From: Candidatus Poribacteria bacterium | GTDB lineage: Bacteria; Poribacteria; WGA-4E; WGA-3G | Assembly (NCBI GenBank): GCA_965205025.1 | Contig: CBDBFU010000012.1 | Coordinates: forward strand, 96,001 to 160,000 | Direction of reading: 5' to 3' | Length of the DNA: 64,000 bases | Shown here: in pieces, positions 38,244-56,726 of the stretch | How the letters are laid out: the number at the start of each line of letters is the position of its first letter | How positions within the stretch are numbered: the stretch's first letter is position 1 | Program-made: the position numbers and the translations under genes | The notes under the pieces: model-generated | The model's input: the letters and a program-made list of their open reading frames with translations, nothing else | Database searches by the model: none | Told to the model about the DNA's origin: nothing

Positions 38244-38371
38244 TTTTCTGATGCATCTGAACTTCAGATCTCTCCGATTGGTGTACCGATGGGTGCACCC
38301 GCTGTATGGTGTGAAATTGTAGATTGAGAAGTCCTTAGATATACTCAATAAAACTAAACAAGGAGATAAAT

Positions 38372-39652: not shown

Positions 39653-39845
39653 TTAATTTCTCAATTTAAAGGTTTTAAATGTGAGCCTATTTCAAATATT
39701 TATTCTCGTTCCAGGTTAAATGAGGTAGAATAAAAAGGATGCATCTCTCATCAGAAATCTATCCTTAGAAATTACTATCTTTTGGATATAAAATGACTCT
39801 TTAATGGTGGTGTATACAATGTATACATTCGTTATTTCGTTAACA

Positions 39846-39874
39846 TTGACATGCCGTAAAATCCGTTGTATAAT
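39846..39874 (+). promoter_or_regulatory. Consensus sigma70 promoter of the grpE-hsp70-J-like operon
   Basis: TTGACA-N17-TATAAT exact match. Confidence 0.75.
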
Positions 39875-39938
39875 CAAACAAAAACAACTTGAATGTATAA
39901 TAGTCATTCCTACATCATAGGTATGAGAGAATTCAGTT

Positions 39939-40655
39939 TTGAGCAGTGAAATGAATAACGATCTTGATGCAAAATTAAAAAAAATCTTGGATAGTGAAAC
40001 AAACTTAGATACGGATAAACCTGATGACACAGTAGATACTGTTGGAGATACCCCAATGGAGGACATGGAATTACATCAGATAAATACACTTACTGAGATT
40101 AACCAGTCTTTGACGGTATTACTCGAATTATTTGAAAAACACATATCTGGAAATCAGAATCAAGTCCAGATGTTTGATAAAATGTATGCCGAAATGAAGG
40201 ACTATAAAGAGAGTTTTCTACTTGAAGTACTTCATAAACCGGTTATCCATAACTTAATTCAACTCTACGATAGTTTTGTATCACTTGAATCTCAGCTTAC
40301 TAACCTTATTGATGAGAATAATGATAACACACTATTAAATGAGTTGGGGCAATATAGTAGTAATTTACAGAATTTTCGTTTTGAACTTGAAGAAGTTTTA
40401 TACCGCATGGATGTAACACCCTATAAGGATTCACCAGATACATTGGATAGGCAGTTACACAAGACACGGAAAGTCATATCTACTGACGATCCAAATTTGG
40501 ATCAGAAAGTAGCAGAAGTGCATAAAATTGGATTCTATTGGCGTGAGAAAGTATTTCGTCCGGAAGATGTAACCATTTATCGTTATACGGCCTCCACAGA
40601 AAAATCTGAACATCGTAATACTAAACATTCTTCAGATCAGCAAAGGGGAGATTAA
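39939..40655 (+). CDS. GrpE-like nucleotide exchange factor
   Basis: Long N-terminal helix, LIQLYD, then LD..LH...V.....D..VAEV.K.GF.W..KV.RPEDV.IY (GrpE beta head). The stop abuts the hsp70 ATG. Confidence 0.8.
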   Translation: MSSEMNNDLDAKLKKILDSETNLDTDKPDDTVDTVGDTPMEDMELHQINTLTEINQSLTVLLELFEKHISGNQNQVQMFDKMYAEMKDYKESFLLEVLHKPVIHNLIQLYDSFVSLESQLTNLIDENNDNTLLNELGQYSSNLQNFRFELEEVLYRMDVTPYKDSPDTLDRQLHKTRKVISTDDPNLDQKVAEVHKIGFYWREKVFRPEDVTIYRYTASTEKSEHRNTKHSSDQQRGD

Positions 40656-42251
40656 ATGGGTAAAGTTGTCGGAATAGATTTAGGTACGACATTTTCTGTG
40701 ATAGCACATATAAATGAGCATGGACAACCTGAAATTATCCCCAATTTGGAAAGTGACCGAATCACACCATCGGTCGTAATGTTTGAAGACAATCTTGTAA
40801 CTGTTGGGAAAATAGCTAAGCAGAATGCCAGAGCTGTTCCTGAACAGATTGTTGAGTTTATCAAAAGGGAGATGGGTAAATCAAGAACGAATTTCTTCCG
40901 TACATTCGATGAAAAAGACTATTCCCCTGAAGAACTATCTGCGCTCATTTTGACGAAACTGAAACAGGATGCAGAAATCTATCTGAATGAAGAGGTAACT
41001 GATGCTGTAATCACTGTACCCGCGTATTTTCACGACGCAGAAAGGGAAGCCACCCGAAATGCAGGTAAAATTGCAGGTTTTAATGTGCTTCAAGTCTTGA
41101 ACGAACCGACCGCAGCTGCACTCGCTTATGGAATCGATCAACTGGGTAATAACCAAAATGTATTTGTATTCGACCTTGGTGGTGGTACATTTGATGTGAC
41201 AATTATGCAGGTCTCAGAAGCTGAAATACAAATGTTAGCAACAAATGGTGACCATAGGTTAGGAGGTAAAGATTGGGACGACAAAATCATTACTTATGTT
41301 GCTGAGATGTTTGAGATAGAACATGGAGAGAATCCTCTGGATGATCTACATACATATCAAGACCTTCAACTGGATGCAATTGGAGCCAAAGAATCCTTAT
41401 CTCAACGACAAAGAGCATTAATTGTATGTGGATATAATGGGAAAACAACTCGTGTCGAATTAATGCGCGAGAAATTTGAAGAACTTACGGCAGATCTACT
41501 TGAGAGATGTCGAACTTTGTGTGAATTAGTATTATCAGAGGCAGAAATGGCTTGGACTGATATTGATAAGATTTTATTGGTTGGCGGGTCGACACGGATG
41601 CCTATGGTACAAGAAATGATACGGACAATTAGCGATAAAGAGATTAATCCACATGAAGTTAATCCTGATGAAGTCGTCGCATTAGGCGCGGCTATCCAAG
41701 GAACTCTACGTCAAATCACTGATGATACTGTTGAAACACCGGAAATGCCTGAAGCTGTTATTGAACGGTTTATTGGACCGGATGGTGTGCCAAAAGTCAC
41801 TGTAACTGACGGTGCTACACATAATCTCGGTCTTGTTGTCCTCAATTCACAACGCGATTATATTATCCATGTTATGATACCAAAAATGACTGCTGTACCG
41901 TGTGAAATTGCTGATCAATTCTTGACTGTAGATGAGAACCAACCAACTGTACTAATTGAGGTGGTGCAAGGACTTGAACAGGATCAGATTAAAAACCAAA
42001 TCCCATTTTTTGATGAATATAAGTTGGGAGAATGCACGCTTGAGTTACCTAACGGATTGCCACAAGGATCTCCAATTGAGGTAAATTATAAATATAATTT
42101 AGACCAAAATCTTGAGGTAACAGCAAAATCATTGACAGATGACGGTCCTACTGCAGTTTTTGATATCTTTTCAATAATTGATAGACCAACACTTAATGAA
42201 GAAGAAGTTTCCCAAGCACAAACAGATCTGCAAGAACTTACAGTTGAATAA
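40656..42251 (+). CDS. Hsp70/DnaK-family paralog lacking most of the alpha-helical lid
   Basis: GIDLGTT.S, TVPAYF, NEPTAAALAYG, DLGGGTFDV, LGG.DWD, LVGGSTRMP, NPDEVVALGAA. Only 531 aa long. Confidence 0.95.
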   Translation: MGKVVGIDLGTTFSVIAHINEHGQPEIIPNLESDRITPSVVMFEDNLVTVGKIAKQNARAVPEQIVEFIKREMGKSRTNFFRTFDEKDYSPEELSALILTKLKQDAEIYLNEEVTDAVITVPAYFHDAEREATRNAGKIAGFNVLQVLNEPTAAALAYGIDQLGNNQNVFVFDLGGGTFDVTIMQVSEAEIQMLATNGDHRLGGKDWDDKIITYVAEMFEIEHGENPLDDLHTYQDLQLDAIGAKESLSQRQRALIVCGYNGKTTRVELMREKFEELTADLLERCRTLCELVLSEAEMAWTDIDKILLVGGSTRMPMVQEMIRTISDKEINPHEVNPDEVVALGAAIQGTLRQITDDTVETPEMPEAVIERFIGPDGVPKVTVTDGATHNLGLVVLNSQRDYIIHVMIPKMTAVPCEIADQFLTVDENQPTVLIEVVQGLEQDQIKNQIPFFDEYKLGECTLELPNGLPQGSPIEVNYKYNLDQNLEVTAKSLTDDGPTAVFDIFSIIDRPTLNEEEVSQAQTDLQELTVE

Positions 42252-42327
42252 ATTCCTTCACCAAATTACATTTTCTTAGATAATATCATTAGTATATCTT
42301 ACCTTAGTTAACCACAGGAAATTACGA

Positions 42328-43704
42328 ATGTCTGATCGAGATGAATTTATAGCCTTTGTAACAGATTTTAAAGTTGTCTCACTTACTATTTCGGACGAAC
42401 AACGTAAAGGTCTTTTACGTAGAGCAGTACATCAACACGGTCTTACTGTAGAAGAAGCATACAGAATATTAGATAAATCGGGACTTGTAATTGGAGAACA
42501 ACAGGTAGATTTTTTTCAAGTATTAGGTATACCCTTTGAAGAGATTAAAACTAAAACCGAATCGGAGATTACAGGATGTGTTGAGTCAACCCACAAGAGA
42601 CTATATAGAGAATCCCTGAATTCGGGTGGTCGTCCACGGCCAGATGGTAGGTCAGAAGAACAGTGGCGAAGATTATTAAATCAAGCACGTGATGTCCTTA
42701 TTGATCCCATTAAGAGGCAAGGACATATTGATGAACTAAATACTTATGATGATGAAGAGTTTAATGAGGATATATCAATTAAGCCAACCACTTCTATAAG
42801 CAATTCATCATTTAATGTTGAGGAAAGGGTTATACCAGCACACAAAAAACTTGTATATTCTGTTGTATTTTCACCTGATGGCACATGTGTTGCCAGTGGG
42901 AGTGCTGACAAATCAATATGTATCTGGGATATTCAGGCTGAAAAGCAGAAACATATTCTTAACGGTCATCATGATACAGTAACATCTGTTAGGTATTCCC
43001 CAGACGGTAAAACCATAGCAAGCGGGAGTTTTGACGGAACAGTATGTTTATGGAATGCTAAATCTGGAGAGTTGAAAAAACGTTTAACAGAACAAAAAGA
43101 TAAAATTAGTTCCCTTGCTTATTCACCTGATGGAAAAACAATTGCAAGTGGGAGTTATAATGGAACTATTCAATTATACAATGCTGAGACAGGAGAACCT
43201 AAAATCCTCCTCAAAGGACATAAGAATTGGGTTAGTTCAGTTGTGTATTCACCTGATGGAAAAACAGTTGCATGTGCAAGTTATGATGGGAATGTATATT
43301 TATGGAATACTGAATCAGGCGTAAATATGCATGTCCTAACAGGTCATAAATTTAGTGTTATCGCAGTAACTTATTCACCTAATTCTGATACAATCATTAG
43401 TATTGATCTACAAGGAACAATTCTGGCATGGAATGCTATTTCTGGAAAACAAAAGAAACTCTCAACGGGGTTCATGTCCTGGGTTAGTTCAGTAGTTTAT
43501 TCCCCAGATGCAACGAATCTAACATGTGGTAGTTTTCATGGATCAATCACTTTATGGAATACAGATACATGGGAGGAAGTAAGAACTATTACAGGGCATA
43601 CCTCAACTGTAAAAGCACTATCCTACTCTCCAGATGGAAGGATTCTGGCAAGCTGCGGTGGAGACGGTAATGTACGAATTTGGAGTTCATCATTATACGA
43701 ATAA
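42328..43704 (+). CDS. J-domain-like module fused to a 7-bladed WD40 beta-propeller
   Basis: Shared N-terminal module (DFFQVLG...GGRPRPDGRSEEQW..LLNQARD.L.DP.KR), then GH..V.SV.YSPDG..IASGS.D repeats. Confidence 0.85.
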   Translation: MSDRDEFIAFVTDFKVVSLTISDEQRKGLLRRAVHQHGLTVEEAYRILDKSGLVIGEQQVDFFQVLGIPFEEIKTKTESEITGCVESTHKRLYRESLNSGGRPRPDGRSEEQWRRLLNQARDVLIDPIKRQGHIDELNTYDDEEFNEDISIKPTTSISNSSFNVEERVIPAHKKLVYSVVFSPDGTCVASGSADKSICIWDIQAEKQKHILNGHHDTVTSVRYSPDGKTIASGSFDGTVCLWNAKSGELKKRLTEQKDKISSLAYSPDGKTIASGSYNGTIQLYNAETGEPKILLKGHKNWVSSVVYSPDGKTVACASYDGNVYLWNTESGVNMHVLTGHKFSVIAVTYSPNSDTIISIDLQGTILAWNAISGKQKKLSTGFMSWVSSVVYSPDATNLTCGSFHGSITLWNTDTWEEVRTITGHTSTVKALSYSPDGRILASCGGDGNVRIWSSSLYE

Positions 43705-43788
43705 TACCTATTCAAGCTGCCGATCATTAATGACAGAATACTACAACTGAATTATTCTTGTTCATAGAATTTCTAATAGGTTTAATTA

Positions 43789-45030
43789 ATGTCCCAACGC
43801 GATGAATTCTTTGCATTTATTAATACTCTCAAAGATGCATCACCTACGATTACTGATGAACAACGAAAAGGCTTTCTCAGACTTGCAGTTGAAAAATATG
43901 GTTTAACTGTTGATGAAGCAACATCTATATTTAATGCATCGGGTATAATAATTGGGGAAATAGTTGATCTACTTGAAATCTTTGGATTAACTATCACAGA
44001 GATTAAGAGATATAATCAATCTGAAATTGTCGATCGCGTTGAGTCAATCCACAGTAAACTATATAGTGAATCTTTAAAGTCCGGTGGTCGTCCGCGTCCA
44101 GATGGTAGGTCAGAAGAACAGTGGCGAAGATTATTAAATCAAGCACGAGACACACTAACTGACTCAAAGAAACGGCACGAATATCTTACCACACTCCAAA
44201 TTAAAGAACCCTCCTTTGATATAGCATCAGGAAGCACAAGTCTTGAGGATATGTCACTTATTCATAAAGGTGAATTTGAAATGGGTAGCAATGATGACGA
44301 GGCTTTTGATGATGAACATCCGGTTCATACCGTTTTTCTTGACGAATTCTATATTGACCAATATCCTGTAACCAATGCACAATACAAGGCATTCCTTGAT
44401 GCAAGACCACAGTGGAGTAGACATGAAATTCCAAAAGAGTATTGTGATGTTGACTATCTAAAGCATTGGCGTTGGGATAGTTTTCCGAAAGGAGAAGCAG
44501 ATTATCCTGTTGTCAATGTAAGTTGGTATGCTGCTATGGCTTATGCTCAATGGAGAGGCAAACGTCTTCCAACTGAAGCTGAATGGGAAAAAGCTGCACG
44601 AGGTGATCTAATTGGCAATAAATATCCATACGGTAATTCAGTAGATCCCACTCAAGCGAATTATGACTGGAATGAGGGAAATACCACACCCGTTGGCAAA
44701 TATCCTTCAAATGGATATGAACTCTATGACATGTGCGGTAATGTTTGGGAATGGTGCCTTGATAAATATGAGAAATATTATTATAGAAACTCACCGACTC
44801 GTAACCCTATTGCTGGTGAAGATACTATTCACCAGTTGAATAGCAACTACTTAGAGATTGAATCTAACCGAGTATTACGGGGTGGTTCATGGCGTATACC
44901 TGCCTTATTAGTAAGAACAGCAAAACGTAATGCTGAATCACCATGGTTTTCACTGAATGTAATTGGATTTCGATGTGTATATCAGGTCTTACTTAAGGAT
45001 ATGTCTCCTTTACCTCCTTCCGTTATATGA
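43789..45030 (+). CDS. J-domain-like module + FGE/SUMF1 (CLec-fold) domain, paralog 1
   Basis: Shared N module, F.MGS..E.P.H.V, PVTNAQY, RLPTEAEWEKAARG, GNVWEW, RGGSW, GFRC. Confidence 0.9.
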   Translation: MSQRDEFFAFINTLKDASPTITDEQRKGFLRLAVEKYGLTVDEATSIFNASGIIIGEIVDLLEIFGLTITEIKRYNQSEIVDRVESIHSKLYSESLKSGGRPRPDGRSEEQWRRLLNQARDTLTDSKKRHEYLTTLQIKEPSFDIASGSTSLEDMSLIHKGEFEMGSNDDEAFDDEHPVHTVFLDEFYIDQYPVTNAQYKAFLDARPQWSRHEIPKEYCDVDYLKHWRWDSFPKGEADYPVVNVSWYAAMAYAQWRGKRLPTEAEWEKAARGDLIGNKYPYGNSVDPTQANYDWNEGNTTPVGKYPSNGYELYDMCGNVWEWCLDKYEKYYYRNSPTRNPIAGEDTIHQLNSNYLEIESNRVLRGGSWRIPALLVRTAKRNAESPWFSLNVIGFRCVYQVLLKDMSPLPPSVI

Positions 45031-45061
45031 ACTATCTTAACTTCTATATCAAAATTAGACT

Positions 45062-46447
45062 ATGCTAAAACGTAATGAGTATATAGACTTTATTAATCAA
45101 TTTAGAACTGTATCTCCAACTATCACAGATGAACAAAGGATTGGTCTTCTGCGACGAGGTGTTCAACAACATGGTCTATCAATTTCTGAGGCAGAGAAAA
45201 TAATTCTATCATCAGGATTAATTATCGGTGAACAGATAAATTATTTCGATATATTCGGTTTATCCATAGAAGATTTACAGAATAAAAACGAGGAGTTAAT
45301 TACAGCAGAAGTTGATACGATACACAGAAATCTATATAACGCTTCCTTAAAAGCAGGAGGTCGTATACGATCAGATGGCAGGACAGAAGAACAGTGGCGG
45401 ATCATATTAAATGAAGCACGCGATACTCTCAAGAATGTTGAAAAACGAAAATCTCATATTGAAATGCTACAATCCGATGTTCTACCTCCGATTGAAATCC
45501 TATTTGAAGATTCTCCTCTACAAGAAACTGACACAACACAAGAAACAATTCAAACACAACCAACCGAACAGTCAAGTGTGTTGCCATCTGTAAAAGTACT
45601 TCCTGAAGATGAATCTATACAAGAAACTGACACCCTTGAAGAATCTAATTTAACACAACCCGTAATAGAAGATGGTATGGCACTCATTCCTGCCGGAGAA
45701 TTTCAAATGGGGAGTGATGACATTGAGGCATACAATGACGAAAAACCTGTACATACTGTATACATAGATACATTCTTTATTGATCAATATCCTGTCACGA
45801 ATGTAGAATATCAAGAGTTTATTGATACCAATCCTGAATGGCGTAAACCCAAAAAGTGGTATGATAATACTGAAATTATTGCCGGTATTCACAAGAAATA
45901 TCATGACGGTGATTACCTAAAGACTTGGAAAAGAAACAATTTTCCAAAAAATGAAGATCATCATCCTGTAACTTGGGTGAGTTGGTATGCAGCCATGGCT
46001 TACGCACAGTGGAAAGGTAAAAGACTACCAACGGAAGCTGAATGGGAAAAAGCTGCACGAGGTGGTTTGACAGGACAGAAATATCCATGGGGAAATACCA
46101 TAAGCCTCAATCATCTAAATTACGATCTATATATCAGTAATACTACAGAAGTAGGTCAATACCCTGAAAATGGTTATGGTATTTATGATATGGCGGGGAA
46201 CGTATTTGAATGGTGCATAGATTTATGGGATGAAAACTTCTATACTAATTCTCCATACAATAATCCTGTCGCTGATGGATATTTAGCAGATATATTAGCT
46301 GATTTCACAAGCGCAATTACACCGAGAGTTGTGCGGGGTGGATCTTCTGTAAGTACTCCGAGAAACACACGTGTTTCATATCGACATAGAAATACTCCTA
46401 AACTGACATGTTTTAGTATTGGATTCCGTTGTGTAAGATCTAAATAA
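45062..46447 (+). CDS. J-domain-like module + FGE/SUMF1 domain, paralog 2
   Basis: Same architecture, with an acidic T/E/Q linker (QETDT twice). Confidence 0.9.
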   Translation: MLKRNEYIDFINQFRTVSPTITDEQRIGLLRRGVQQHGLSISEAEKIILSSGLIIGEQINYFDIFGLSIEDLQNKNEELITAEVDTIHRNLYNASLKAGGRIRSDGRTEEQWRIILNEARDTLKNVEKRKSHIEMLQSDVLPPIEILFEDSPLQETDTTQETIQTQPTEQSSVLPSVKVLPEDESIQETDTLEESNLTQPVIEDGMALIPAGEFQMGSDDIEAYNDEKPVHTVYIDTFFIDQYPVTNVEYQEFIDTNPEWRKPKKWYDNTEIIAGIHKKYHDGDYLKTWKRNNFPKNEDHHPVTWVSWYAAMAYAQWKGKRLPTEAEWEKAARGGLTGQKYPWGNTISLNHLNYDLYISNTTEVGQYPENGYGIYDMAGNVFEWCIDLWDENFYTNSPYNNPVADGYLADILADFTSAITPRVVRGGSSVSTPRNTRVSYRHRNTPKLTCFSIGFRCVRSK

Positions 46448-46500
46448 ACTACATTTTTATCAAATTTTTACTAATTTTTCATATATAAATTATTCTATCT

Positions 46501-47721
46501 ATGGCTGAAAGCAAAGAATTCATAGCATTTGTTAATAGATTAAAGACACTGTCACCGACCATAACCGAAGAGCAGCGTATTGGTCTTCTACGTCAAGGTA
46601 TGCAGGAATATAACCTCACCTCAGATGAAGCGGAAAATATTCTGAAAACATCAGGATTAATTGTTGGTGAACAAGATAATTATTTTGATGTCTTAGGAAT
46701 CTCAATTGAAGAATTTGAAGAACTTAGTGAAGCAGATATTATTGCGTATGTAGAATCCATCCACGACAAACTTTACAGAGCATCTTTGAATGCAGGAGGT
46801 CGGCCAAGGTCTGATGGTAGGACAGAAGAAGAGTGGCGGACACTACTAAATCAAGCACGAGATACATTAATAGATCCTGATATACGACGATTACACAATT
46901 CAACATTACAACAAACAGAAAATTCCTTAGATGATGGAATAACACATCTAAGTTCTGAAAATATGGTGTTAATCCCTGAAGGAGAATTTCAGATGGGATG
47001 TGATGATTATCAATCTGATAAGAGTGAGAAACCTGTCCATACTGTTTATGTTGATGCATTCTATATAGACTCTTTTCCGGTAACGAATCTACAGTACAAA
47101 TTATTTCTGGATGCGAACCCTCAGTGGAAATCTCCTAAAATAATTGATATTTATAGGATGCGAAAATATCGAGATACAGACTATTTGATGACTTGGGATA
47201 GGAACAAAGTTCCAACAGGAAAGGAAGAACATCCTGTAACTTGGGTGAGTTGGTATGCAGCTATGGCTTATGCTCAATGGTTAGGTAAAAGATTGCCAAC
47301 AGAAGCAGAATGGGAAAAAGCAGCACGTGGTGGCTTAGAAGAGAAAAAATATCCATGGGGTAATTCGATTGATGATTCCTATGCAAATTTTGGTATAAAC
47401 ATCGGTGAGACAACCCCAATTGGTAATTATCCTGCTAACAATTATGAAGTATACGATATGGTAGGGAATGTATCTGAATGGTGTTTAGATAAGTGGGATG
47501 AAAAATTCTATAGTTATTCACCACATATTAACCCAATTGCAGGTGGAAGTACTGAAAGGATTATAGAGACACATTCAAAATTAAGAGAGGAACGTGTAAT
47601 CAGAGGGGGTTCATGGCATACTGACCTTGAAGACCTACGAATATCCTACAGAACAGGATTAGCACCTTCAAAAACAGAAAGTTTTATAGGATTTCGTTGT
47701 GTGAAACCTATTAACCAGTAA
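46501..47721 (+). CDS. J-domain-like module + FGE/SUMF1 domain, paralog 3
   Basis: Same architecture. Confidence 0.9.
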   Translation: MAESKEFIAFVNRLKTLSPTITEEQRIGLLRQGMQEYNLTSDEAENILKTSGLIVGEQDNYFDVLGISIEEFEELSEADIIAYVESIHDKLYRASLNAGGRPRSDGRTEEEWRTLLNQARDTLIDPDIRRLHNSTLQQTENSLDDGITHLSSENMVLIPEGEFQMGCDDYQSDKSEKPVHTVYVDAFYIDSFPVTNLQYKLFLDANPQWKSPKIIDIYRMRKYRDTDYLMTWDRNKVPTGKEEHPVTWVSWYAAMAYAQWLGKRLPTEAEWEKAARGGLEEKKYPWGNSIDDSYANFGINIGETTPIGNYPANNYEVYDMVGNVSEWCLDKWDEKFYSYSPHINPIAGGSTERIIETHSKLREERVIRGGSWHTDLEDLRISYRTGLAPSKTESFIGFRCVKPINQ

Positions 47722-47763
47722 ACCAATTATTTCTCTTGTTAAAGACCTAATTGAGGATCAAGA

Positions 47764-49053
47764 ATGCGTGAATATGAAGAATTTATCTCTGTTATCAATA
47801 CACTCAAAGTACTATCACCAATAATAACTGAAGCGCAACGTATTGGTCTTCTGCGACAAGGTGTGCAGGAATATGGTCTCACTACAGATGAAGCGGAAAA
47901 TATTCTGAAAACATCAGGATTAATTGTTGGTGAACAAGATAATTATTTTGATGTTTTAGGAATCTCAATTGAAGAACTGGAAAATCTCAGTGAAGCAGAT
48001 GTCGACGCACATGTTGAATCTGTCCACGACAAACTTTACCGAACATCTTTGAATGCAGGAGGTCGTCCGCGGTCTGATGGTAGAACAGAAGTAGAGTGGC
48101 GAAACCTTTTAAATCAAGCAAAAGATACAATAACAGATCCCTTAAAAAGAAGTGAATATATTTACATTCTACAACAGGATAGAATAAAGGATATACCTAC
48201 TGAAACATCACAGGAATTGGAATCATCTGAGGCAAACACAATACCTCATGCATTAAGTAGTACATTTATACAGGATGGTATTGAGGTGCCTGATGATATG
48301 GTATATATACCAGCAGGAGAATTCCAAATGGGGAGTGAACATGCAGATGCAGAGGAGGATGAACAACCTATTCACACAGTTTTTGTTAATGCATTTCTTA
48401 TGGATAAATATCCTGTGACAAATAGGAAATTTAGAGAATTTCTGAATACTAATCCTGAGTGGCGGAAACCTGATGATATAATTAATCATATAAGATGGAA
48501 TTATCATGACGGTTCATATTTGAAGGATTGGCAGATGAATATGTATCCACCTGGGAAAGGTGATCATCCAGTGACACAGGTGAGTTGGTATGCTGCGATG
48601 GCGTATGCAGAATCTGTAGGTAAGCGTTTACCGACTGAAGCGGAATGGGAAAGAGCAGCACGCGGTGGCTTGGATGGTAAACACTATTCATGGGGTAATG
48701 TTGAAGATTTTGCTAATGCAGATGAGTATTTAAATGCTGAAGATAATTTGCCAATCGGCCTTACACCTGCCAATAATTATGGACTTTATGACATGTGTGG
48801 CAATGTATGGGAATGGTGTCTTGATGCATATAATGAGGATTTCTATAATGATACACCACAGAATAACCCATTTTATGGACCTAACAGCATAGAATGGGTA
48901 ATAGAACATTTTAGACGTATAACAATCGAACGTGTATTACGCGGAGGTCCTTGGGGTTTTGAAACTATAGGTGCACGAGTATCACAACGACTCAAAAGTG
49001 CCCCAACCGATACTTTACCTACTTACAGTTTTCGTTGTATAAAATATATTTGA
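47764..49053 (+). CDS. J-domain-like module + FGE/SUMF1 domain, paralog 4
   Basis: Same architecture. Confidence 0.9.
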   Translation: MREYEEFISVINTLKVLSPIITEAQRIGLLRQGVQEYGLTTDEAENILKTSGLIVGEQDNYFDVLGISIEELENLSEADVDAHVESVHDKLYRTSLNAGGRPRSDGRTEVEWRNLLNQAKDTITDPLKRSEYIYILQQDRIKDIPTETSQELESSEANTIPHALSSTFIQDGIEVPDDMVYIPAGEFQMGSEHADAEEDEQPIHTVFVNAFLMDKYPVTNRKFREFLNTNPEWRKPDDIINHIRWNYHDGSYLKDWQMNMYPPGKGDHPVTQVSWYAAMAYAESVGKRLPTEAEWERAARGGLDGKHYSWGNVEDFANADEYLNAEDNLPIGLTPANNYGLYDMCGNVWEWCLDAYNEDFYNDTPQNNPFYGPNSIEWVIEHFRRITIERVLRGGPWGFETIGARVSQRLKSAPTDTLPTYSFRCIKYI

Positions 49054-49117
49054 TAGGTATGGTCTTTTTGATAGAATAATTTCATAGAATATTGAAATAT
49101 AAATAGACTTACTAAAC

Positions 49118-50407
49118 ATGGCAAAACGTGAAGAGTTCATTCAGCTTATCAACACTTTTAAAACGGTGTCAGACACAATAACAGACAATCAAAGACGTGG
49201 TCTGTTGCAACAGGCTGTACAGATCTACGATCTCTCTATTGAAGAAGGTATAGAGATATTGGATTCATTAGGAATAGTTGTCGGCGATGAGATAAATTAT
49301 TTTGAGATATTAGGACTATCCCTTGAGGACATACAAGACAAGGATGACCACTCGGTTACTGATATTGTTAAAATAGCACATGATGACTTGTATAAAGTCT
49401 CCTTAACTGCTGGAGGACGGGTCAGATCAGATGGAAGGACTGAAGAACAGTGGCGAATACTACTGAACCAAGCGCGGAATATTCTGGGTGATAAAGAAAA
49501 AAGAAACGAATACATATCAACCCTTCTTCAAGAAGAATCTGAAGAATTTACAACTCCGAATACACCTACTATTCCGGGTACCGAACCTAATTCTATACAG
49601 ACGAGTGAAATTGTATCTGAACTGACCTCTCATATAATAATAGATCCTGACGATATTGAAATCCCGACTGAAATGGTATTGATCCCTTCAGGAGAATTTA
49701 TGATGGGATCTCATAGTGAAGAAATAAATGGTAGTGATTTATCATTACATAGTGTGTATGTAAATGGATACCTAATTGATAAATATCCTGTAACTAATTC
49801 TGAATTCCGTATTTTTCTCACAGAGAACGAACAATGGCAGAAAAACAACATACCCAATGAATTTCACAATGGTAAATACCTTAGTTCTTGGAACGGGAAT
49901 ATCTATCCAAGAAATAAAGACAATGATCCGGTTGTCGACGTAAGTTGGTATGCTGCCATGGCTTATGCTCAATGGATAGAGAAACGACTTCCAACAGATA
50001 TTGAATGGGAAAAAGCTGCACGTGGAGGGTTAACTGAAAAAACGTATCCCTGGGGTGATGATATTACTAACGACCTGGCGAATTACGGAATGATTGTTGG
50101 GAATACAACCCCTGTTGGCACCTATCCTCCAAATGAGTATGGTGCGTATGATATGGTTGGCAATGTGTGGGAATGGTGCCTTAATCATTATGAACATATT
50201 GAAGCATTTAGTAAACCAAGTATATCTGTTGAACAGATTGGTGATATCTTAGATTCCTACTTAGAAGTCGAAAGCAATCGTGTGTTACGTGGAGGGTCTT
50301 GGGCAAGTAGTGAACGAGCTCTTAATGTTGCATATAGAGGTAGTGCTGCCCCTGATTATACATATTACAGCTACGGGTTTCGATGTGTTAAGGATATTCA
50401 TGGGTAA
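49118..50407 (+). CDS. J-domain-like module + FGE/SUMF1 domain, paralog 5
   Basis: Same architecture. Confidence 0.9.
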   Translation: MAKREEFIQLINTFKTVSDTITDNQRRGLLQQAVQIYDLSIEEGIEILDSLGIVVGDEINYFEILGLSLEDIQDKDDHSVTDIVKIAHDDLYKVSLTAGGRVRSDGRTEEQWRILLNQARNILGDKEKRNEYISTLLQEESEEFTTPNTPTIPGTEPNSIQTSEIVSELTSHIIIDPDDIEIPTEMVLIPSGEFMMGSHSEEINGSDLSLHSVYVNGYLIDKYPVTNSEFRIFLTENEQWQKNNIPNEFHNGKYLSSWNGNIYPRNKDNDPVVDVSWYAAMAYAQWIEKRLPTDIEWEKAARGGLTEKTYPWGDDITNDLANYGMIVGNTTPVGTYPPNEYGAYDMVGNVWEWCLNHYEHIEAFSKPSISVEQIGDILDSYLEVESNRVLRGGSWASSERALNVAYRGSAAPDYTYYSYGFRCVKDIHG

Positions 50408-50467
50408 AATATCTTCAACTCTAATGTACATCTAATTTTCAGAGTTCATCTTTTTGGAACTGTATTA

Positions 50468-51845
50468 ATGGCAAAACGAGAAGAATTTATAGATGCAATC
50501 AATTTGTTTAGATCTGCCTCACAGTCCATTTCGGTAGAACAACGGATAGGACTTTTACAACAAGCTGTACAAGAGTATGGACTATCAATAGAAGAAGCAG
50601 AGGGGATAATCAAAGAAACAGGATTAAATGTCGGTGGTGCTATTAATTACTTTAGAGTCTTAGGTTTGTCAAATCACGAATTTGAAAATCTGAACGAAAC
50701 CACTATTACATCAATTATAGATGACGCACATAAACAACATTATACAGAATCATTAAGGGCAGGTGGCCTTCCTCGTCCTGATGGGAGAACCCAAGAACAG
50801 TGGAGAAATATCTTAAATCACGCACGCGATACTTTAATTGATCCACATAAACGCGAAGAATATCTATCACAATTATTGAGTGAAGAAGATTCATCTGATA
50901 GTCTCATTAATGATGTGTCCAACAATAATACCACTGATACGGAAATCTATAATCAGAATCATAACCAGACAGTCTCAATTGATAATAAAGCACAATTAAA
51001 TACATGCACCTTCGATTGTAAAAAATAAAAAAGTATTTACCCATCATGAATCACCTGCAAATATGGTACAAATCCCTGCTGGTGACTTCAGAATGGGTAG
51101 TAATAATGAAAAAGTTAGTAATAGAGAAAAACCTGCACATGTCGTGTATATTGACGAGTTTTTTATAGACACTAATTTAGTTACCAATGCAGAATATAAA
51201 GAGTTTGTAGATGCCAATCCACAATGGACAAAACCAACAAAATGGTTTCACTTAGAGAAAAAGATGAAATCTTATATACCTGAGAAATACCATGATGGTG
51301 ATTATCTAAAACATTGGAATGAGAATACATATCCTGATGAGAAAGCAGAACATCCTGTGACATGGGTGAGCTGGTATGCCGCAATGGCGTATGCTGAATG
51401 GGTGGCTAAACGTCTCCCAACAGAGGCAGAATGGGAAAAAGCTGCACGCGGTGGAATAACTGGACAGAATTATCCTTGGGGAGAATCAATTGATTATACT
51501 AAGGCTAATTATAATAGCTATATTGGTGAAACAACTTCTGTCGGTCAGTATCCTGCAAACGGATATGGAATTCATGATATGATAGGAAATGTCTGGGAAT
51601 GGTGTCTTGACGAGTATCAGGAAAATTACTATGCAAGTTCAGAACGCAAGAACCCAATTTGTGGTCCAAATACGGTTGAATCAATAGAATATAGTGATAT
51701 AGATAATAGACATGCACGGGTAATGCGAGGAGGTTCTTGGCTGGATGCCTCTCAATTCGTCCGTTCTGCATCCCGTTACAGGAACACACCTACACGTACA
51801 CTCGCAAGAATTGGGTTTCGTTGTGTCAAGTCTGCAACATCATAA
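50468..51845 (+). pseudogene. J-domain-like module + FGE/SUMF1 domain, paralog 6, split by a +1 frameshift in the linker (ORFs 50468-51028 and 51063-51845)
   Basis: The downstream frame is open from 51000. Deleting one A between 50998 and 51025 fuses the two ORFs. Confidence 0.85.
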
Positions 51846-51907
51846 TCCCGATAACTTCTTCATTGCAAATTTAGTTACACCTACATGTTTAATTACTGGT
51901 GGTACGT

Positions 51908-53299
51908 ATGTCAAATCGTGATGAGTTTATTGCTGTCGTAAATACACTCAAAACACTCTCTAATACAATTACAGATGAACAGAATAGAAGTCTATTACAG
52001 CAGGCAGTCCACGATCATGGTCTCTCAGTAGAAGACGCCTTGGAGATAATCGATTCATTAGGGATAATTGTTGGGGAAAAGATAAACTACTTAGAGATCT
52101 TAGGGTTTTCTATTGAAGATTTAAGTTCACAAGATGAATCTAACATTACTAAAATGCTTGAAATTGCCCATAAAAAATACTACTCTGAATCATTACAGTC
52201 GGGTGGGTTACCACGACAGGATGGGAGAACTCAAGAACAGTGGCGTACAATTCTAAATCAAGCCTATGATACATTGAAAGATCCAATAAAACGCAAGGAA
52301 CATATTGAAACCGTACAAACTGAGTCATCTCATGAGGAGAACACATCAACTATAGTAACCGAAATATCTGAACCTAAAGATACCTCATTACAAGTTGCAG
52401 TTCCAGAAGAAATGGTCTTAATTCCATCTGGGGATTTTCAGATGGGTAATAGTAATGAAAATGCAAATATACGCGAAACACCGGTACATATTGTCAATAC
52501 TGATGCATTTTATATTGACAAATATCCAATAACAAATGAACAATATAAAGCGTTTATAGATGCAAACCCATTATGGCGGAAACCATCTGAAGGATTGTGG
52601 TTATATCTTCAAAAATGGTATGAAAAAGGGAACGTTCGATTTCGATATAACTACATATATGATAAATATCATGATGGAGTGTATCTGAGACATTGGAGAC
52701 ATAATAGGTTCCCTCTTGAAACAGCTAATCATCCTGTTACCCATGTAAGTTGGTATGCTGCAATGGCGTATGCACAATGGGTTGGCAAACGTCTGCCAAC
52801 AGAAGCAGAATGGGAGAAAGCTGCACGGGGAGGGATAAATGGTCAGAAATATCCTTGGGGTGATTTAATGAATTCCAACATGGCAAATTGTAATGAGGAT
52901 GCAGATAAAACCACACCTATAGGAAAGTATCCTGCAAATAATTTCGGTGTTTTTGATATGGTTGGAAATATATGGGAGTGGTGCATTGATGAATATGTAA
53001 TGGATTTTTATACATCCTCTACATCTCTGAATCCTATCGCAGGCGTGGACTCAAAGGAGGACTTGGACAATTTCATTCTCAATTTTAGAGACGTAGATAG
53101 TGATCGTGTTTTGCGAGGTGGTACATCCTTTATTTCATCTGAACCTATCCATACTGCCGCACGTTGGGGTGGAACACCTATTCTTACTGAACATATTGCT
53201 TCCTATTCAACTAAGTATTTAGATACATTTTCAAGGCCAATCGCAGCAAACATTGGCTTCAGATGTGTATGGGATACAAACGTAAAAACGAATTCTTAA
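51908..53299 (+). CDS. J-domain-like module + FGE/SUMF1 domain, paralog 7
   Basis: Same architecture. Start set at MSNRDEF by comparison with the paralogs. Two long insertions in the variable loops. Confidence 0.9.
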   Translation: MSNRDEFIAVVNTLKTLSNTITDEQNRSLLQQAVHDHGLSVEDALEIIDSLGIIVGEKINYLEILGFSIEDLSSQDESNITKMLEIAHKKYYSESLQSGGLPRQDGRTQEQWRTILNQAYDTLKDPIKRKEHIETVQTESSHEENTSTIVTEISEPKDTSLQVAVPEEMVLIPSGDFQMGNSNENANIRETPVHIVNTDAFYIDKYPITNEQYKAFIDANPLWRKPSEGLWLYLQKWYEKGNVRFRYNYIYDKYHDGVYLRHWRHNRFPLETANHPVTHVSWYAAMAYAQWVGKRLPTEAEWEKAARGGINGQKYPWGDLMNSNMANCNEDADKTTPIGKYPANNFGVFDMVGNIWEWCIDEYVMDFYTSSTSLNPIAGVDSKEDLDNFILNFRDVDSDRVLRGGTSFISSEPIHTAARWGGTPILTEHIASYSTKYLDTFSRPIAANIGFRCVWDTNVKTNS

Positions 53300-53326
53300 T
53301 TCTTGTTAAATCTAATTTATTAAACA

Positions 53327-55663
53327 ATGAATTCATATCCAAAAGAGAGATTGATTATGAAAAACAAAAATAGTTACATATTATGGTATAACAAACCAGC
53401 ACAAGAGTGGACAGATGCCCTACCCGTTGGGAATGGACGACTTGGGGCAATGGTGTTTGGGGGAGTAGAACAGGAACGGATCCAACTTAATGAAGAGAGT
53501 CTTTGGGAAGGATGTTTTCAGGATACAAATAATCCTAAGGCACTGCAAGCACTTCCAATTGTCCAACAATTGTTGTTTGAAGACAAAAATGATGAAGCCA
53601 CAACACTTGCTGGTGAAACGATGCTGGGTGTTCCACATCGGATAAAATCTTATCAGTCTTTAGGCGATATTATTATTGATTTTACTAATCATAGTGAAAT
53701 TACAGAATATCACCGGGAACTGGATTTAGATACAGGTATAGCAAAGACAACCTATCAAGTCGGTAATGATAATATCAATAGAGAAGTCTTCGCAACTGCT
53801 GTCGATGATATCATCGTTATCCGTATAGAATCCGATTCAGCCAATGCTGTTAGTTTTGATGTTACAATGACACGAGAACAGGATGCCTCGGTTGCATGCA
53901 TATCTGACAAAATCCTTAGACTTGATGGAGAATGTAGTGATGGTGGTCTACGTTTTTCTGCATATCTGAAGGCAAATGTTGATGATGGAAAAATAGAATC
54001 GAATGAAGATAAAATTTCTATTCGTTCTGCAAGTAGTGTAACATTGCTACTGTCTGGTGCAACGAGTTATATTAATCAGAAAGATGCAACGGGTAATCCA
54101 CATGAATTGTGTGAAGGTCATCTGTCATCAGTAGAAAACAAATCTTATGACAAATTACGTTCTGACCACATACAGGAACATCAATCTCTATTTCAAAGAG
54201 TAGACATAAACCTCGGTTCAAGCGATGCGGATAATCTACCTACAGATGAACGTCTAACAAAGGTAAAGGAAGGTGACTCTGACCCAGGGCTTGTTTCACT
54301 ATATTTTCAGTTTGGACGTTATCTTTTAATGGGGAGTTCAAGACCCGGATGTCTCCCAGCCAACCTGCAGGGGGTTTGGAACCATCACATGAAAGCCCCA
54401 TGGAACAGCGATTACCACACCAATATTAATCTACAAATGAATTACTGGGTTCCAGAAGTATGCAATCTCGCTGAATGTCATAAGCCGTTATTTGATTATA
54501 TGGATACACTCGTTGAACCTGGAAGTGAGACAGCAAAACGCCATTATGGTGCAGGGGGTTGGGTAGTTCATCACTTATCTGATATATGGGGATTTACAAC
54601 ACCAGCGGATGGTATTTGGGGGATATCACCTGTAGGTGCTGCATGGTTGAGCGAACATGTATGGGAACATTACCTGTTCGGTGGTGATGAGAAATTTCTT
54701 AGAGAACAAGGTTATCCACTCATGAAAGGTGCCGCACGTTTTATGCTTGATTTTCTAATTGAAGCACCAGAAGGTACACCTTTCGCTGGAAAACTTGTAA
54801 CGAATCCATCCCATTCACCTGAAAACAGTTTTCAAAAAGCTGATGGTACACGTTCACTATTCACTTATGCCGCAACAATTGACCTTGAGATTATACATGA
54901 ACTCTTCACAAATTGCATAGACTGTCTTGATGTACTCGGTATTGACGCGGATTTCCGAGAAGAATTAGTTTCATCTCTGGATCGGTTGGCACCACTACAG
55001 ATTAGTGAAAAAACAGGTAGACTGCAGGAGTGGATATATGACTATGATGAACCGGAACCAGGACATAGACATATGTCACATATGTATGGTCTACATCCAA
55101 GTTGTCAAATAACACTACGTGGCACTCCTGAGTTGGCAGAGGCAGCACGAAAATCTTTGGAATATCGATTGCAACATGGTGGCGGACAAACAGGATGGAG
55201 TCGGGCATGGTTGGTAAATTTCTTAGCACGACTTGAAGACGCAGAAGAAGCGTATAACCATTTACATGCACTCCTTGCAAGGTGTACCTTAACAAACCTG
55301 TTTGATACCCATCCACCATTCCAGATTGACGGAAACTTTGGGGGAACAGCAGGAATTGCTGAGATGCTTATACAAAGTCATGACGGAGAGATTAACCTAC
55401 TCCCCGCACTGCCAAAAGAATGGAATACCGGTTATGTTAAAGGGTTGCGTGCACGCAGTGGGTTTGAAGTGGATATGGAATGGGAAAATGGTACTCTTAC
55501 TAAGTCGATAATTTCTTCTCAACTTGGTAGGGAATGTACTGTTAGAACAACGGAAACTGTTTCGGTGTCGTGTGATAATGAAAAAATTGAATCAATTCAA
55601 TCTAATTCAGTGACAACATTCAGTACAGAGATTGGAAAAACCTACATAATATCTACTACATAG
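53327..55663 (+). CDS. Glycoside hydrolase family 95 (alpha-1,2-L-fucosidase-like)
   Basis: [60 protein letters not shown]. Confidence 0.95.
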
Positions 55664-55702
55664 TGTTCAAACAAATACATCGGGAGCCTATCCTATTAAA
55701 AG

Positions 55703-55741
55703 CAATAGACTCTATCAATGGAACATTGACGGAGTCTATTG
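55703..55741. terminator. Hairpin, probable bidirectional terminator
   Basis: CAATAGACTCTATCAATG-gaa-CATTGACGGAGTCTATTG between convergent genes. Confidence 0.6.
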
Positions 55742-55780
55742 ATAATTCCAAGATTTATTTAGAAAATATTGTGATGACAA

Positions 55781-56572
55781 CTATTTTGTTTTTAAATTCC
55801 CCCAAGTTGTTGTCAACTTGCCACCTGCTTCAACAGCAGTAATCGCAGAAATTCCATCTTCCATCACAGATTTTACTTCATCATGAGTTAACCCACGTTT
55901 CCATACTTGCATGTCATCCATGAGTCCAGCAAAAGGACGGTTATTATCGATATTATAACCTACACGTGCCCCTTGACCCCAATCACCTGCGATAGGATCT
56001 GGCAATCGCGCTTTTTCCTCACCTACTTTTTCCCCATTAATATATAGATAAGCCATAGCTTCTTCACGACTAAATGTACCAGCGTAATGCACCCACTCTT
56101 TTGGCGTATTTTTACCTGCACGGATATCAAATAATGTTTTACCTGGATTATGTCCCCGATTGAGCCAGCGGAAATTACCACCTCCACGTGCTTCTGGATG
56201 TACTACCCAGGTACCATCTGTTGCACGTGCGTTGAAGAGTGCCATATCTGTAACTGCATCAACATTAATCCACGCGACAATACTCATACCTTGTGTCGGT
56301 ATATGGGCTGGATCAACGTTAGGACCATCCATATCAAGATAACTCCCCGATACAAAATGTCCAGCTTTACCAAATTTACCCGCATTCGCTTGGGTCACAT
56401 CTCCATTGATTGTCCCATCATAACCATGACCGGATTTATCAATAACTTTATTTCCAGAAAATTCTTCAAAATCAAAATAAAAAACTAAATCTTCATCTAA
56501 CACTTTTGCAGACAAACTGCTAATATGGGATGCAAACATCAAACATAGAACTACCAGTATGAAACGTTTCAT
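55781..56572 (-). CDS. Secreted LamG-like jelly-roll protein
   Basis: Signal peptide, YFDFEE..G..V.D.SG, W.H.AGT, LYING, F.G.MDD..VW.R.L. C-terminus AVEAGGKLTTTWGNLK. Confidence 0.9.
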   Translation of the reverse strand: MKRFILVVLCLMFASHISSLSAKVLDEDLVFYFDFEEFSGNKVIDKSGHGYDGTINGDVTQANAGKFGKAGHFVSGSYLDMDGPNVDPAHIPTQGMSIVAWINVDAVTDMALFNARATDGTWVVHPEARGGGNFRWLNRGHNPGKTLFDIRAGKNTPKEWVHYAGTFSREEAMAYLYINGEKVGEEKARLPDPIAGDWGQGARVGYNIDNNRPFAGLMDDMQVWKRGLTHDEVKSVMEDGISAITAVEAGGKLTTTWGNLKTK

Positions 56573-56726
56573 ATAGATTACCCCTTTTACATTTGAATAG
56601 TATCAACCTTTAGATTGCTTATAGTAGATTAGTATAACAAAGTTAAGATTGTAAGGCAAACCAATTTCAATAACATCATTTAATTAATAAAATTGATTCT
56701 AAAAAAATAGGATTATTTTAATATTA

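Follow-up and report, generated by a model that had tools for sequence, protein, structure and literature searches.

What does a bacterium do with seven tandem copies of an enzyme fold that has lost its catalytic residues? The question is raised by a 64,000-nucleotide stretch of contig CBDBFU010000012.1 from Candidatus Poribacteria bacterium (assembly GCA_965205025.1; hereafter the window, numbered from its first letter), in which seven of seven open reading frames (ORFs) at 43789–53299 carry the fold of formylglycine-generating enzyme, FGE (Pfam family FGE-sulfatase, PF03781, E 1e-58 to 1e-63). A first-pass annotation of this DNA had described seven FGE-fold domains that lack catalytic cysteines and had proposed that they are binders diversified by duplication and not sulfatase maturases. 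The count of seven is correct, but its coordinates (44240–53299) start at the first FGE domain and thereby omit the N-terminal domains that these proteins share, a paralog with a WD40 propeller, an Hsp70 and a GrpE-like protein. The reading we favor, with a probability of roughly 55%, is that the array is part of an Hsp70 machine that is dedicated and lineage-specific and works with a fixed set of eight modular adaptors, each specific for a ligand, the FGE domains being their target-recognition ends.

The ORF list and Pfam scans place the array at the end of an uninterrupted run of genes on the plus strand (39939–53299) that encodes, in order, the GrpE-like protein, the Hsp70 and eight paralogs. 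Alignments show that the eight paralogs share an N-terminal domain of about 140 residues (the N-domain; 49–75% identity to copy 3), which is followed by a WD40 propeller in the first paralog and by an FGE-sulfatase domain in the other seven. No other gene of the 5.66-Mb assembly carries the N-domain, for which Pfam gives no match. Between a sulfatase gene and the GrpE-like gene, and close to the start of the latter, is a sigma-70-type promoter-like site that is the sole 12/12 match within 36800–56700 (about 20 kb); it is a consensus match only, and seven related loci (L002, L003, L004, L005, L006, L009 and L026) have the identical pattern a short way 5' of their GrpE-like ORF. The GrpE-like protein has no NCBIfam match, and a phmmer search of its own genome returns only itself. 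Its ORF is listed from a TTG at 39939, with an alternative ATG start a few codons downstream, and its stop abuts the Hsp70 start; in many related loci a GrpE-like gene is likewise kept 5' of the Hsp70 gene. Together the GrpE-Hsp70 operon and the J-like character of the N-domain described below, both missed by the first-pass annotation, change what the array is.

In AlphaFold2 models the N-domain consists of three short helices (residues 1–56) followed by a four-helix unit (residues 57–143), with a mean pLDDT (the per-residue confidence score of the model) of 87.6 for the domain alone. When residues 57–140 were searched with Foldseek, nearly all top rows were J-domains, the best being that of Thermus DnaJ (E 0.086, probability 1.00; top rows E 0.086–1). 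VIA-align gave Z scores of 8.5 for the J-domain of DNAJB8, then 7.9, 7.5 and 7.4 (HscB), and ERdj5 and Tim14-Tim16 are also among the structural matches of this unit. At the level of sequence, three of the four hits of an N-domain profile against PDB sequences are HscB (E 0.2) and DNAJA3 (E 1.4), and among 1.84 billion representatives the same profile reaches true DnaJ-domain proteins (P0108, E 7.8e-11). Look-alikes of the N-domain in the ESM Atlas, which include a DnaJ cluster and a DjlA cluster, score only 0.78–0.81 and are leads only. Each of these scores is modest, and the direction is consistent across methods: they point one way, to a J-like unit.

The putative J-like unit departs from a canonical J-domain. 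The His-Pro-Asp (HPD) motif between helices II and III is found in none of 125 aligned N-domains, and a longer loop, SL..G...R.DG, replaces it in 124 of the 125. Residues Y92, S95, L96, G99, R103, D105 and W112 of the N-domain do not vary.

The Hsp70 of the operon is divergent as well. Its PF00012 match spans residues 4–525, and alignment to DnaK structures covers residues 1–352 and 404–492, so that it comprises a DnaK-like actin-type ATPase domain and a beta substrate-binding domain; it scores below the DnaK equivalog cut-off (425 bits versus 648, NF001413). Compared with the genome's own DnaK, it lacks the C-terminal helical lid, has about 20 extra residues after the ATPase domain, and carries the interdomain linker VTVTD where DnaK has the hydrophobic ILLLD. 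In related loci the protein is 531 aa long in 25 of 28 cases, the remaining three having 508, 532 and 534 aa, and its identity to the window copy is 72–97% in the 27 Hsp70s that were aligned with it. Furthermore, this Hsp70 has a Gln where the genome's own DnaK and Mycobacterium DnaK hold the Arg of VLRI(V/I)NEPTAA, and this residue (Q146) is invariant in 28 of 28 Poribacteria copies. The replaced Arg is presumably the equivalent of DnaK R167, the contact of the HPD aspartate. If so, both sides of the canonical contact between J-domain and Hsp70 have changed together, since the HPD motif is replaced on one side and the Arg on the other.

Prediction of a complex between the Hsp70 and the N-domain, without ATP, weakly supports such a partnership. 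The median score was 0.45 (runs 0.45, 0.01 and 0.68), compared with 0.00 for the best control; the runs agree in at least 55% of contacts, and the pLDDT of the partner stays at 72 or above. For calibration, 157 solved complexes and 215 mismatched pairs were scored: 116 of the former and 2 of the latter pass the mark, and scores of 0.60 or less among those that pass belong to only 18 of the 157 and to both mismatches. Complexes of J-domains with Hsp70 have already been solved, so that likeness to them may contribute to the score. Among the representative sequences there is also a protein of 536 aa (P0047) in which an Hsp70 ATPase domain (residues 30–381) is joined directly to an adaptor N-domain (403–533). 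The protein may be a true fusion or the product of a read-through in gene calling; in the former case it would favor physical contact between the two partners.

We then turn to the C-terminal modules. The identities of the T. curvata FGE residues Cys269, Cys274, Ser266, Tyr273 and Arg276 are taken from PMC6676471. The two Cu(I)-binding cysteines (C336/C341 in the human enzyme, C269/C274 in that of T. curvata) are absent from the FGE domains of the array: when phmmer aligns copy 3 with T. curvata FGE (6s07), copy 3 has a gap at the first and a Leu at the second. A C-x4-C motif at the catalytic place is found in none of the seven window copies, none of the 143 family loops taken from full-length relatives in related loci and none of the 22 FGE-family ORFs of the genome; the one regular-expression match uses the Cys of the terminal GFRC and was not counted. 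The seven proteins are almost certainly not formylglycine-generating enzymes or enzymes of the SUMF1/EgtB/PvdO family, as the public records of their relatives would have it ('formylglycine-generating enzyme family protein', 'SUMF1/EgtB/PvdO family nonheme iron enzyme' or simply 'hypothetical'). On the missing cysteines and on the conclusion that these are not sulfatase maturases, the first-pass annotation is supported, the latter also by a radical-SAM sulfatase maturase encoded elsewhere in the genome. Its supporting detail is also accurate: the loop strings that it quoted, including the 18-aa insertion of the last copy and three inserts before the YHDG motif, are exact letter for letter, and the scaffold motifs VSWYAAMAYA and KRLPTEAEWEKAARGG are indeed conserved across the seven copies.

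Although they lack these cysteines, the domains retain the enzyme's fold. The full-length AlphaFold2 model of F3 (mean pLDDT 86.6, with a disordered linker at residues 138–152) finds FGE 2q17 as its best Foldseek match (E 2.3e-22, TM-score 0.71 on the target) and also matches TvpA 2y3c, a variable protein of a diversity-generating retroelement (DGR), at E 3.5e-14. Among solved structures, true FGEs come closest at about 30% identity, with EgtB, PvdO, PorK and TvpA behind them. Of 143 family loops, 99 retain the triad Ser of FGE, and the equivalent of Trp228 is present in 109 of 136.

A last form of the enzymatic hypothesis is that these proteins still catalyse a reaction as members of the FGE/EgtB/PvdO superfamily, using an active site that does without the cysteine pair, and that the Hsp70 context is incidental or serves their folding. 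The superfamily includes enzymes without these cysteines, relatives carry its names in public records, and there are sub-threshold NCBIfam matches to EgtB, SenA and PvdO. These matches, however, are far under their cut-offs (for example, EgtB at 128 bits versus 360), and the DinB-type iron domain that precedes the fold in EgtB/OvoA is missing, the N-terminal half being the J-like domain instead. Moreover, the residues invariant over 136 sequences are scaffold positions, while the loops that form the pocket vary between paralogs, which is the reverse of what a shared active site would lead one to expect. We regard this explanation as highly improbable.

Where the seven domains differ is informative. 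Their pairwise identity is 45–55%, with differences spread over the whole domain and four segments that are especially variable: the insert before YHDG, a short middle loop, the segment before RVxRGG, and the loop between RGG and GFRC. The first-pass annotation held that the domains vary most at the RGG-GFRC loop. This is so, narrowly, for the proportion of nonsynonymous differences (pN) among the window paralogs, which is 0.562 in this loop, 0.486–0.513 in the other three and 0.238 in the scaffold; by pairwise identity the loop ties with the insert before YHDG and the segment before RVxRGG, and it does not clearly stand out as the most variable of the four. According to the accessible part of PMC6328139, the stretch that holds the catalytic triad in FGE is, in DGR target proteins, the C-terminal variable region, and the most paralog-specific segment of the array coincides with it. 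Because of this coincidence it is plausible to take the FGE domains as ligand-binding modules, and the term binders, used by the first-pass annotation, is plausible by the same analogy. The insert before YHDG lies in the stretch that holds the T. curvata FGE peptide contacts Trp84, Phe86, Met99, Ala101, Trp108 and Trp109 (available text of PMC6676471), as judged by position only, phmmer leaving query residues 206–238 and chain residues 74–128 of T. curvata FGE unaligned.

How these differences arose, and whether they are still arising, can be read from related loci. A tree of FGE domains from the window and its three closest loci (L001, L002 and L003) resolves seven clades, each with one gene per genome and in the same chromosomal order; two partial L002 rows were dropped beforehand, and L001 and L002 each hold one extra copy. 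Compared column by column, the variable segments are 0–30% identical between paralogs and 60–90% identical within orthologs. Region-wise Nei-Gojobori estimates of the ratio of nonsynonymous to synonymous substitution rates (dN/dS) among the four closest genomes were 0.14 for the scaffold, 0.27 for the RGG-GFRC loop, 0.39–0.49 for the other three loops and 0.21 for the whole protein. Per-column counts pooled over 49 independent closest pairs from all loci gave corresponding ratios of the proportions of nonsynonymous and synonymous differences (pN/pS) of 0.13–0.20, 0.24, 0.33–0.35 and 0.255. These are crude counting methods, not a codon-model test; within them, no region lies beyond neutrality, and none of 434 columns in the 49-pair set has a pN above the overall pS. 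Since the loops differ between paralogs, are conserved in orthologs and have dN/dS below 1, they became paralog-specific and were then maintained, which is the pattern of fixed, different specificities and not that of an arms race or of hypermutation.

The idea of diversification by duplication is thus right for an old and static duplication, which left paralogs at 45–55% identity, and wrong for an ongoing one, given the one-to-one orthologs and the purifying selection on their loops (0.27 and 0.24 at the RGG-GFRC loop by the two methods). Purifying selection across orthologs is what the first-pass annotation itself had named as speaking against its proposal.

The same evidence bears on the possibility that the loops are, or recently were, targets of a DGR. 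The fold and the position of the variable segment do match FGE-type DGR proteins, as the TvpA match and the part of PMC6328139 available to us indicate. However, the search that the first-pass annotation had proposed, for a reverse transcriptase and a template repeat, found neither: there is no RVT_1 (PF00078) match in the genome, which is 95.5% complete in 33 contigs, the search covering the assembled part, and by blastn the last 200 nt of each of the seven genes hit only themselves. The divergence of the paralogs over the whole domain and the conservation of orthologous loops are also contrary to it, as is the identity of the contigs of two sequencing runs to the window over the whole stretch, although contigs are blind to rare variants. 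With no reverse transcriptase, no template repeat and conserved orthologous loops, this explanation is close to refuted. In the contigs, we also observed many 'joints' that link conserved motifs of different paralogs or organisms, which we take to be assembly artefacts.

One of the eight adaptors is broken in the window. The split of F6 into two ORFs is due to one extra nucleotide near 50994 (50990–51000), in the linker, as seen in a DNA alignment with L002 and L003, where the orthologs are intact; beyond it, the peptide of the orthologs continues in the +1 frame. Runs X1 and X2, which come from two samples of the same study and are probably the source of this metagenome-assembled genome (MAG), have contigs that match the window over the frameshift site with 0 differences and 0 gaps. 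Interrupted copies also occur in related arrays (L001:8679–9955, L001:11748–13046 and L002:10712–12010; one frameshift-like overlap and two in-frame stops), which suggests either the occasional loss of single adaptors or errors of MAG assembly.

The sulfatase gene upstream of the operon raises a more specific alternative. Dead FGE domains might grip the signature peptides of unfolded sulfatases and pass nascent sulfatases to the dedicated Hsp70 for radical-SAM maturation, with different loops serving different sulfatase classes. FGE acts on unfolded peptides, and J-proteins deliver such peptides to Hsp70; the inactive human paralog pFGE/SUMF2 is said to keep a grip on sulfatase peptides. The nearness of the array to true FGEs and the frequent retention of the triad Ser and the Trp228 equivalent fit this proposal. 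So does the genomic setting: a Cys-type sulfatase is encoded directly upstream in the window, all 11 related loci examined have a sulfatase 5' of the GrpE-like gene (with an ankyrin gene intervening in L021), and the genome holds 46 sulfatase matches together with, elsewhere, a radical-SAM sulfatase maturase (anSME; 524 bits versus a cut-off of 349). Because anSME is present and none of the 22 FGE-family ORFs has the cysteine pair, the organism seems to mature its sulfatases by the radical-SAM route.

Several observations nevertheless make this role quite unlikely. The promoter-like site parts the sulfatase from the operon, so that the sulfatase is probably a separate transcription unit, and with 46 matches in about 5.7 Mb a neighboring sulfatase is no rarity. 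The groove residues Tyr273 and Arg276 of T. curvata FGE (available text of PMC6676471) are not retained in copy 3, the WD40, ankyrin, HEAT and TPR modules of sister adaptors do not suggest sulfatase peptides, and 97 of 151 sampled Poribacteria genomes are without the N-domain. The conserved flanks themselves may reflect plain synteny within one bacterial family or a functional link. In our survey of flanks, which took 11 chosen related loci and ran 21 of 38 flank ORFs through Pfam, a GH95 glycoside hydrolase likewise follows the array in 8 of the 8 loci that have a downstream ORF.

The modules attached to the N-domain vary, in line with modular adaptors. The N-domain profile finds 132 cluster representatives at E ≤0.001 among the 1.84 billion, of which 74, the longer ones, were scanned with Pfam. 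Twenty carry an FGE-sulfatase domain, 11 ankyrin repeats, and two each WD40, HEAT, TPR and PEGA/peptidoglycan-binding domains; one is fused to an Hsp70 ATPase domain, two are true DnaJ proteins, other domains are found in five, and the remaining 27 are without any. A pattern scan across species-representative genomes yielded 36 related loci, 34 titled Candidatus or uncultured Poribacteria and two 'uncultured bacterium', most of which show GrpE-Hsp70 followed by 2–10 genes with N-domain and FGE domain. Of 16 N-domain genes without FGE in these loci, 11 were scanned: seven have WD40, one ankyrin and three no Pfam match. Within the phylum, the N-domain occurs in 54 of 151 sampled genomes and is nearly confined to one family (52 of 99), in which two genera have it in 31 of 37 and 20 of 57 genomes, with 1–13 matches per genome.

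Related loci also vary in layout. A second type of locus, in other Poribacteria (L007, L012, L013, L014, L016, L019, L023 and L032), has the same 531-aa Hsp70 followed by only 2–3 adaptors, with no GrpE-like ORF by phmmer at E 0.001, and in four of these (L007, L014, L019 and L023) a perfect consensus promoter pattern lies just 3' of the array. Three further loci encode adaptor paralogs of about 540 aa (L025:9953–11569, L029:4462–6072 and L031:9983–11608) in which the C-terminal 400 or so residues have no Pfam match; these may carry a further unnamed recognition module.

It is possible, though we would place it well short of even odds, that the operon represents a previously undescribed, Poribacteria-restricted Hsp70 targeting machine, in which an HPD-less J-like domain couples about eight fixed, heritable receptor modules to a lidless Hsp70 through a rewired interface. 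The modules would then be dead FGE folds and WD40 here and ankyrin, HEAT or TPR elsewhere, and the targets could be proteins of the sponge host, of phage or of the bacterium itself.

Targets of foreign origin would also be expected of an immune or conflict system, in which the FGE-fold ('FGS') and WD40 modules sense invader proteins, from phage or otherwise, and Hsp70/GrpE acts as a switch or effector driven by nucleoside triphosphate (NTP), a scheme already put forward for other conflict systems centred on chaperones in bacteria with complex life styles. As far as the accessible text of PMC7159879 goes, FGS domains are sensor or effector modules of many conflict systems, and one GTPase-centred class of these includes Hsp70-GrpE-DnaJ genes; the available part of PMC12642450 describes FGE sensors fused to proteases and a lidless DnaK-like domain fused to defence modules. 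The patchy occurrence within genera, the range of 1–13 copies and the broken copies would suit such a system. Against it, Pfam recognizes no effector (nuclease, protease, pore, TIR and the like) in the operon; PADLOC calls no system and gives no family match to the GrpE, the adaptors or the Hsp70 beyond one hit at E 0.0009; and all examined loci have the same catabolic flank genes, not a variable defence island. The receptors of an arms race would be expected to turn over, whereas these loops are under purifying selection with no site above neutrality and the paralogs are kept one-to-one. We consider an immune role unlikely.

A dedicated Hsp70 machine with modular adaptors remains the explanation that we prefer, and several points weigh against it. 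The structural case for the J-like unit is statistically modest: no Foldseek row for residues 57–140 falls below E 0.001, and a Z score of 8.5 is one that the tool rates as common for helical models. Lacking HPD, such a domain might not stimulate the Hsp70 ATPase and may instead be a regulator or serve another partner. The complex prediction is a weak pass, one of its three runs having scored 0.01. Of the groove residues of T. curvata FGE, Cys269, Tyr273, Cys274 and Arg276 (available text of PMC6676471) are not retained in the loop of copy 3. The system is absent from 6 of 37 sampled genomes of the same genus, the window's own genome not being counted. Finally, since F6 is frameshifted in the window and broken copies exist in L001 and L002, not every adaptor is indispensable.

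The favored machine could work as follows. Read from its own promoter, the operon would supply a GrpE-like factor, a lidless Hsp70 and eight adaptors. The J-like domain of each adaptor would dock it on the operon's Hsp70 via a rewired interface, formed by the SL..G...R.DG loop of the adaptor and the Gln that stands in place of the J-contact Arg of the Hsp70. The C-terminal module, a Cys-less FGE/C-type-lectin fold or a WD40 propeller, would bind one particular ligand, most likely a protein or peptide, which in the FGE modules may occupy the groove used for the sulfatase peptide by true FGE. With the GrpE-like factor resetting its ATPase cycle, the Hsp70 would then hold, unfold or remodel the bound target. 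Of this scheme, the analysis establishes the domain composition and order of the operon, its conservation, the loss of catalytic residues, the ancient syntenic paralogy and the purifying selection on paralog-specific loops; the binding of the J-like domain to Hsp70, the binding of ligands by the FGE domains and the nature of those ligands are inferred.

Table 1. Positions of the operon and its neighbors in the window.
Feature	Position	Strand	Evidence and remarks
N6/N4 DNA methylase	35003–35857	-	PF01555 E 7.7e-45; no obvious restriction partner among scanned ORFs
Cys-type sulfatase, CSPSR motif, without signal peptide	38372–39652	+	PF00884 E 4.7e-66; context
Sigma-70-type promoter-like site, TTGACA-17-TATAAT	39846–39874	+	12/12 matches; just 5' of GrpE-like gene
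Divergent GrpE-like nucleotide-exchange factor	39939–40655	+	PF01025 E 2.2e-8, 34.4 bits versus cut-off 25.8
Divergent Hsp70, 531 aa	40656–42251	+	PF00012 E 2.7e-121
Adaptor paralog 0: N-domain (three-helix subdomain and putative HPD-less J-like domain) and WD40 propeller	42328–43704	+	WD40 E 9.9e-68; N-domain aligns with other seven
Adaptor F1: N-domain and Cys-less FGE-fold domain	43789–45030	+	PF03781 E 3.7e-63; orthologs in L001, L002, L003
Adaptor F2: N-domain, long acidic linker, Cys-less FGE-fold domain	45062–46447	+	PF03781 E 6.7e-62; orthologs found
Adaptor F3: N-domain and Cys-less FGE-fold domain	46501–47721	+	PF03781 E 7.7e-62; modelled copy
Adaptor F4: N-domain and Cys-less FGE-fold domain	47764–49053	+	PF03781 E 9.8e-59; orthologs in L001, L003; L002 copy stop-interrupted
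Adaptor F5: N-domain and Cys-less FGE-fold domain	49118–50407	+	PF03781 E 5e-61; orthologs found
Adaptor F6, split: N-domain ORF 50468–51028, FGE-domain ORF 51063–51845	50468–51845	+	PF03781 E 1.2e-63 (C-terminal part)
Adaptor F7: N-domain and Cys-less FGE-fold domain; 18-aa insertion in RGG-GFRC loop, long insert before YHDG	51899–53299	+	PF03781 E 7e-58; orthologs found
GH95 glycoside hydrolase	53327–55663	+	PF22124 E 1.3e-176; starts 28 nt past F7; context
263-aa protein, hydrophobic N-terminus, Laminin_G_3/concanavalin-like domain	55781–56572	-	E 3.1e-22; convergent with GH95

The operon and its neighbors are listed in Table 1. Pfam scans of the operon and six surrounding ORFs recognize Hsp70, GrpE, WD40, FGE-sulfatase, sulfatase, UxuA, GH95, GH32, DNA methylase and Laminin_G_3 domains, and no MoxR, vWA, GTPase or effector domain.

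If the machine exists as proposed, its non-canonical J-like domain and matching Hsp70 would show, in a case provided by nature, what rewiring a J-Hsp70 interface allows, and the seven orthologue-stable groove variants would form a series for the study of recognition by FGE/C-type-lectin folds without retroelement diversification. On the bolder reading of a Poribacteria-restricted targeting machine, the FGE peptide groove would also have been re-used as a general surface for protein recognition without a DGR, and bacteria would have an equivalent of the network that specialised J-proteins form in eukaryotes. Poribacteria are sponge symbionts known for eukaryote-like repeat proteins, and the machine would be a lineage-specific trait of these uncultivated symbionts that may bear on symbiosis or on phage defence in the sponge holobiont.

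Each component has a precedent among the known specialised J-proteins, dedicated Hsp70s and FGE ('FGS') domains that serve recognition without catalysis. Their combination, in which a lidless Hsp70 without the J-contact Arg stands beside HPD-less J-like domains that keep a conserved replacement loop and a syntenic array of at least seven dead FGE folds, was not found described in the literature searched, which comprised open main texts and PMC7159879 and PMC12642450 in their accessible portions. With FGE/SUMF1 (2q17, 6s07 and 1y1e) and the inactive pFGE/SUMF2 (1y4j), the array shares the fold, about 30% identity, the scaffold motifs WEW(C) and GFRC and, in most copies, the triad Ser and the Trp228 equivalent. 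Unlike FGE, it has neither Cu-binding cysteine in any copy and consists of seven tandem paralogs, with a loop that is three residues shorter than that of T. curvata FGE in copy 3 and extended by an 18-aa insert in F7, and its FGE domains share their proteins with a J-like domain and their operon with an Hsp70. The variable proteins of DGRs (TvpA 2y3c, TaqVP and Mtd) share the fold subtype, and the most paralog-specific segment of the array is at the position of their variable region (accessible part of PMC6328139). In contrast to these, the array comes without reverse transcriptase or template repeat, its variation lies between ancient paralogs and over the whole domain, and its loops are conserved in orthologs.

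The 'FGS' conflict systems (Kaur, Burroughs, Iyer, Aravind 2020, PMC7159879) and the FGE sensors with protease effectors (PMC12642450) resemble the array, in the portions of these sources available to us, by a non-catalytic C-terminal FGE module behind varied N-terminal domains, by an association with chaperone-type NTPases and by lineage-specific expansions. Their cores, as presented there, are MoxR-vWA, GTPases or proteases with explicit effectors. The core of the array is instead Hsp70 and GrpE, no effector was found in it, and coupling would run through the HPD-less J-like domain. A further comparison is with the specialised J-proteins that bring Hsp70 to a single target, such as HscB with HscA, auxilin with Hsc70, and DjlB and DjlC with HscC, along with the HPD-less J-like Pam16/Tim16. 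Like them, the array joins a putative J-fold to a putative target-binding module, would work with a dedicated Hsp70 and is genetically linked to it. It differs from them in the longer loop that stands in for HPD (125 of 125 N-domains are without the motif), in the extra three-helix subdomain before the J-fold, in its eight paralogous adaptors per operon, and in an Hsp70 that has dispensed with both the lid and the J-contact Arg.

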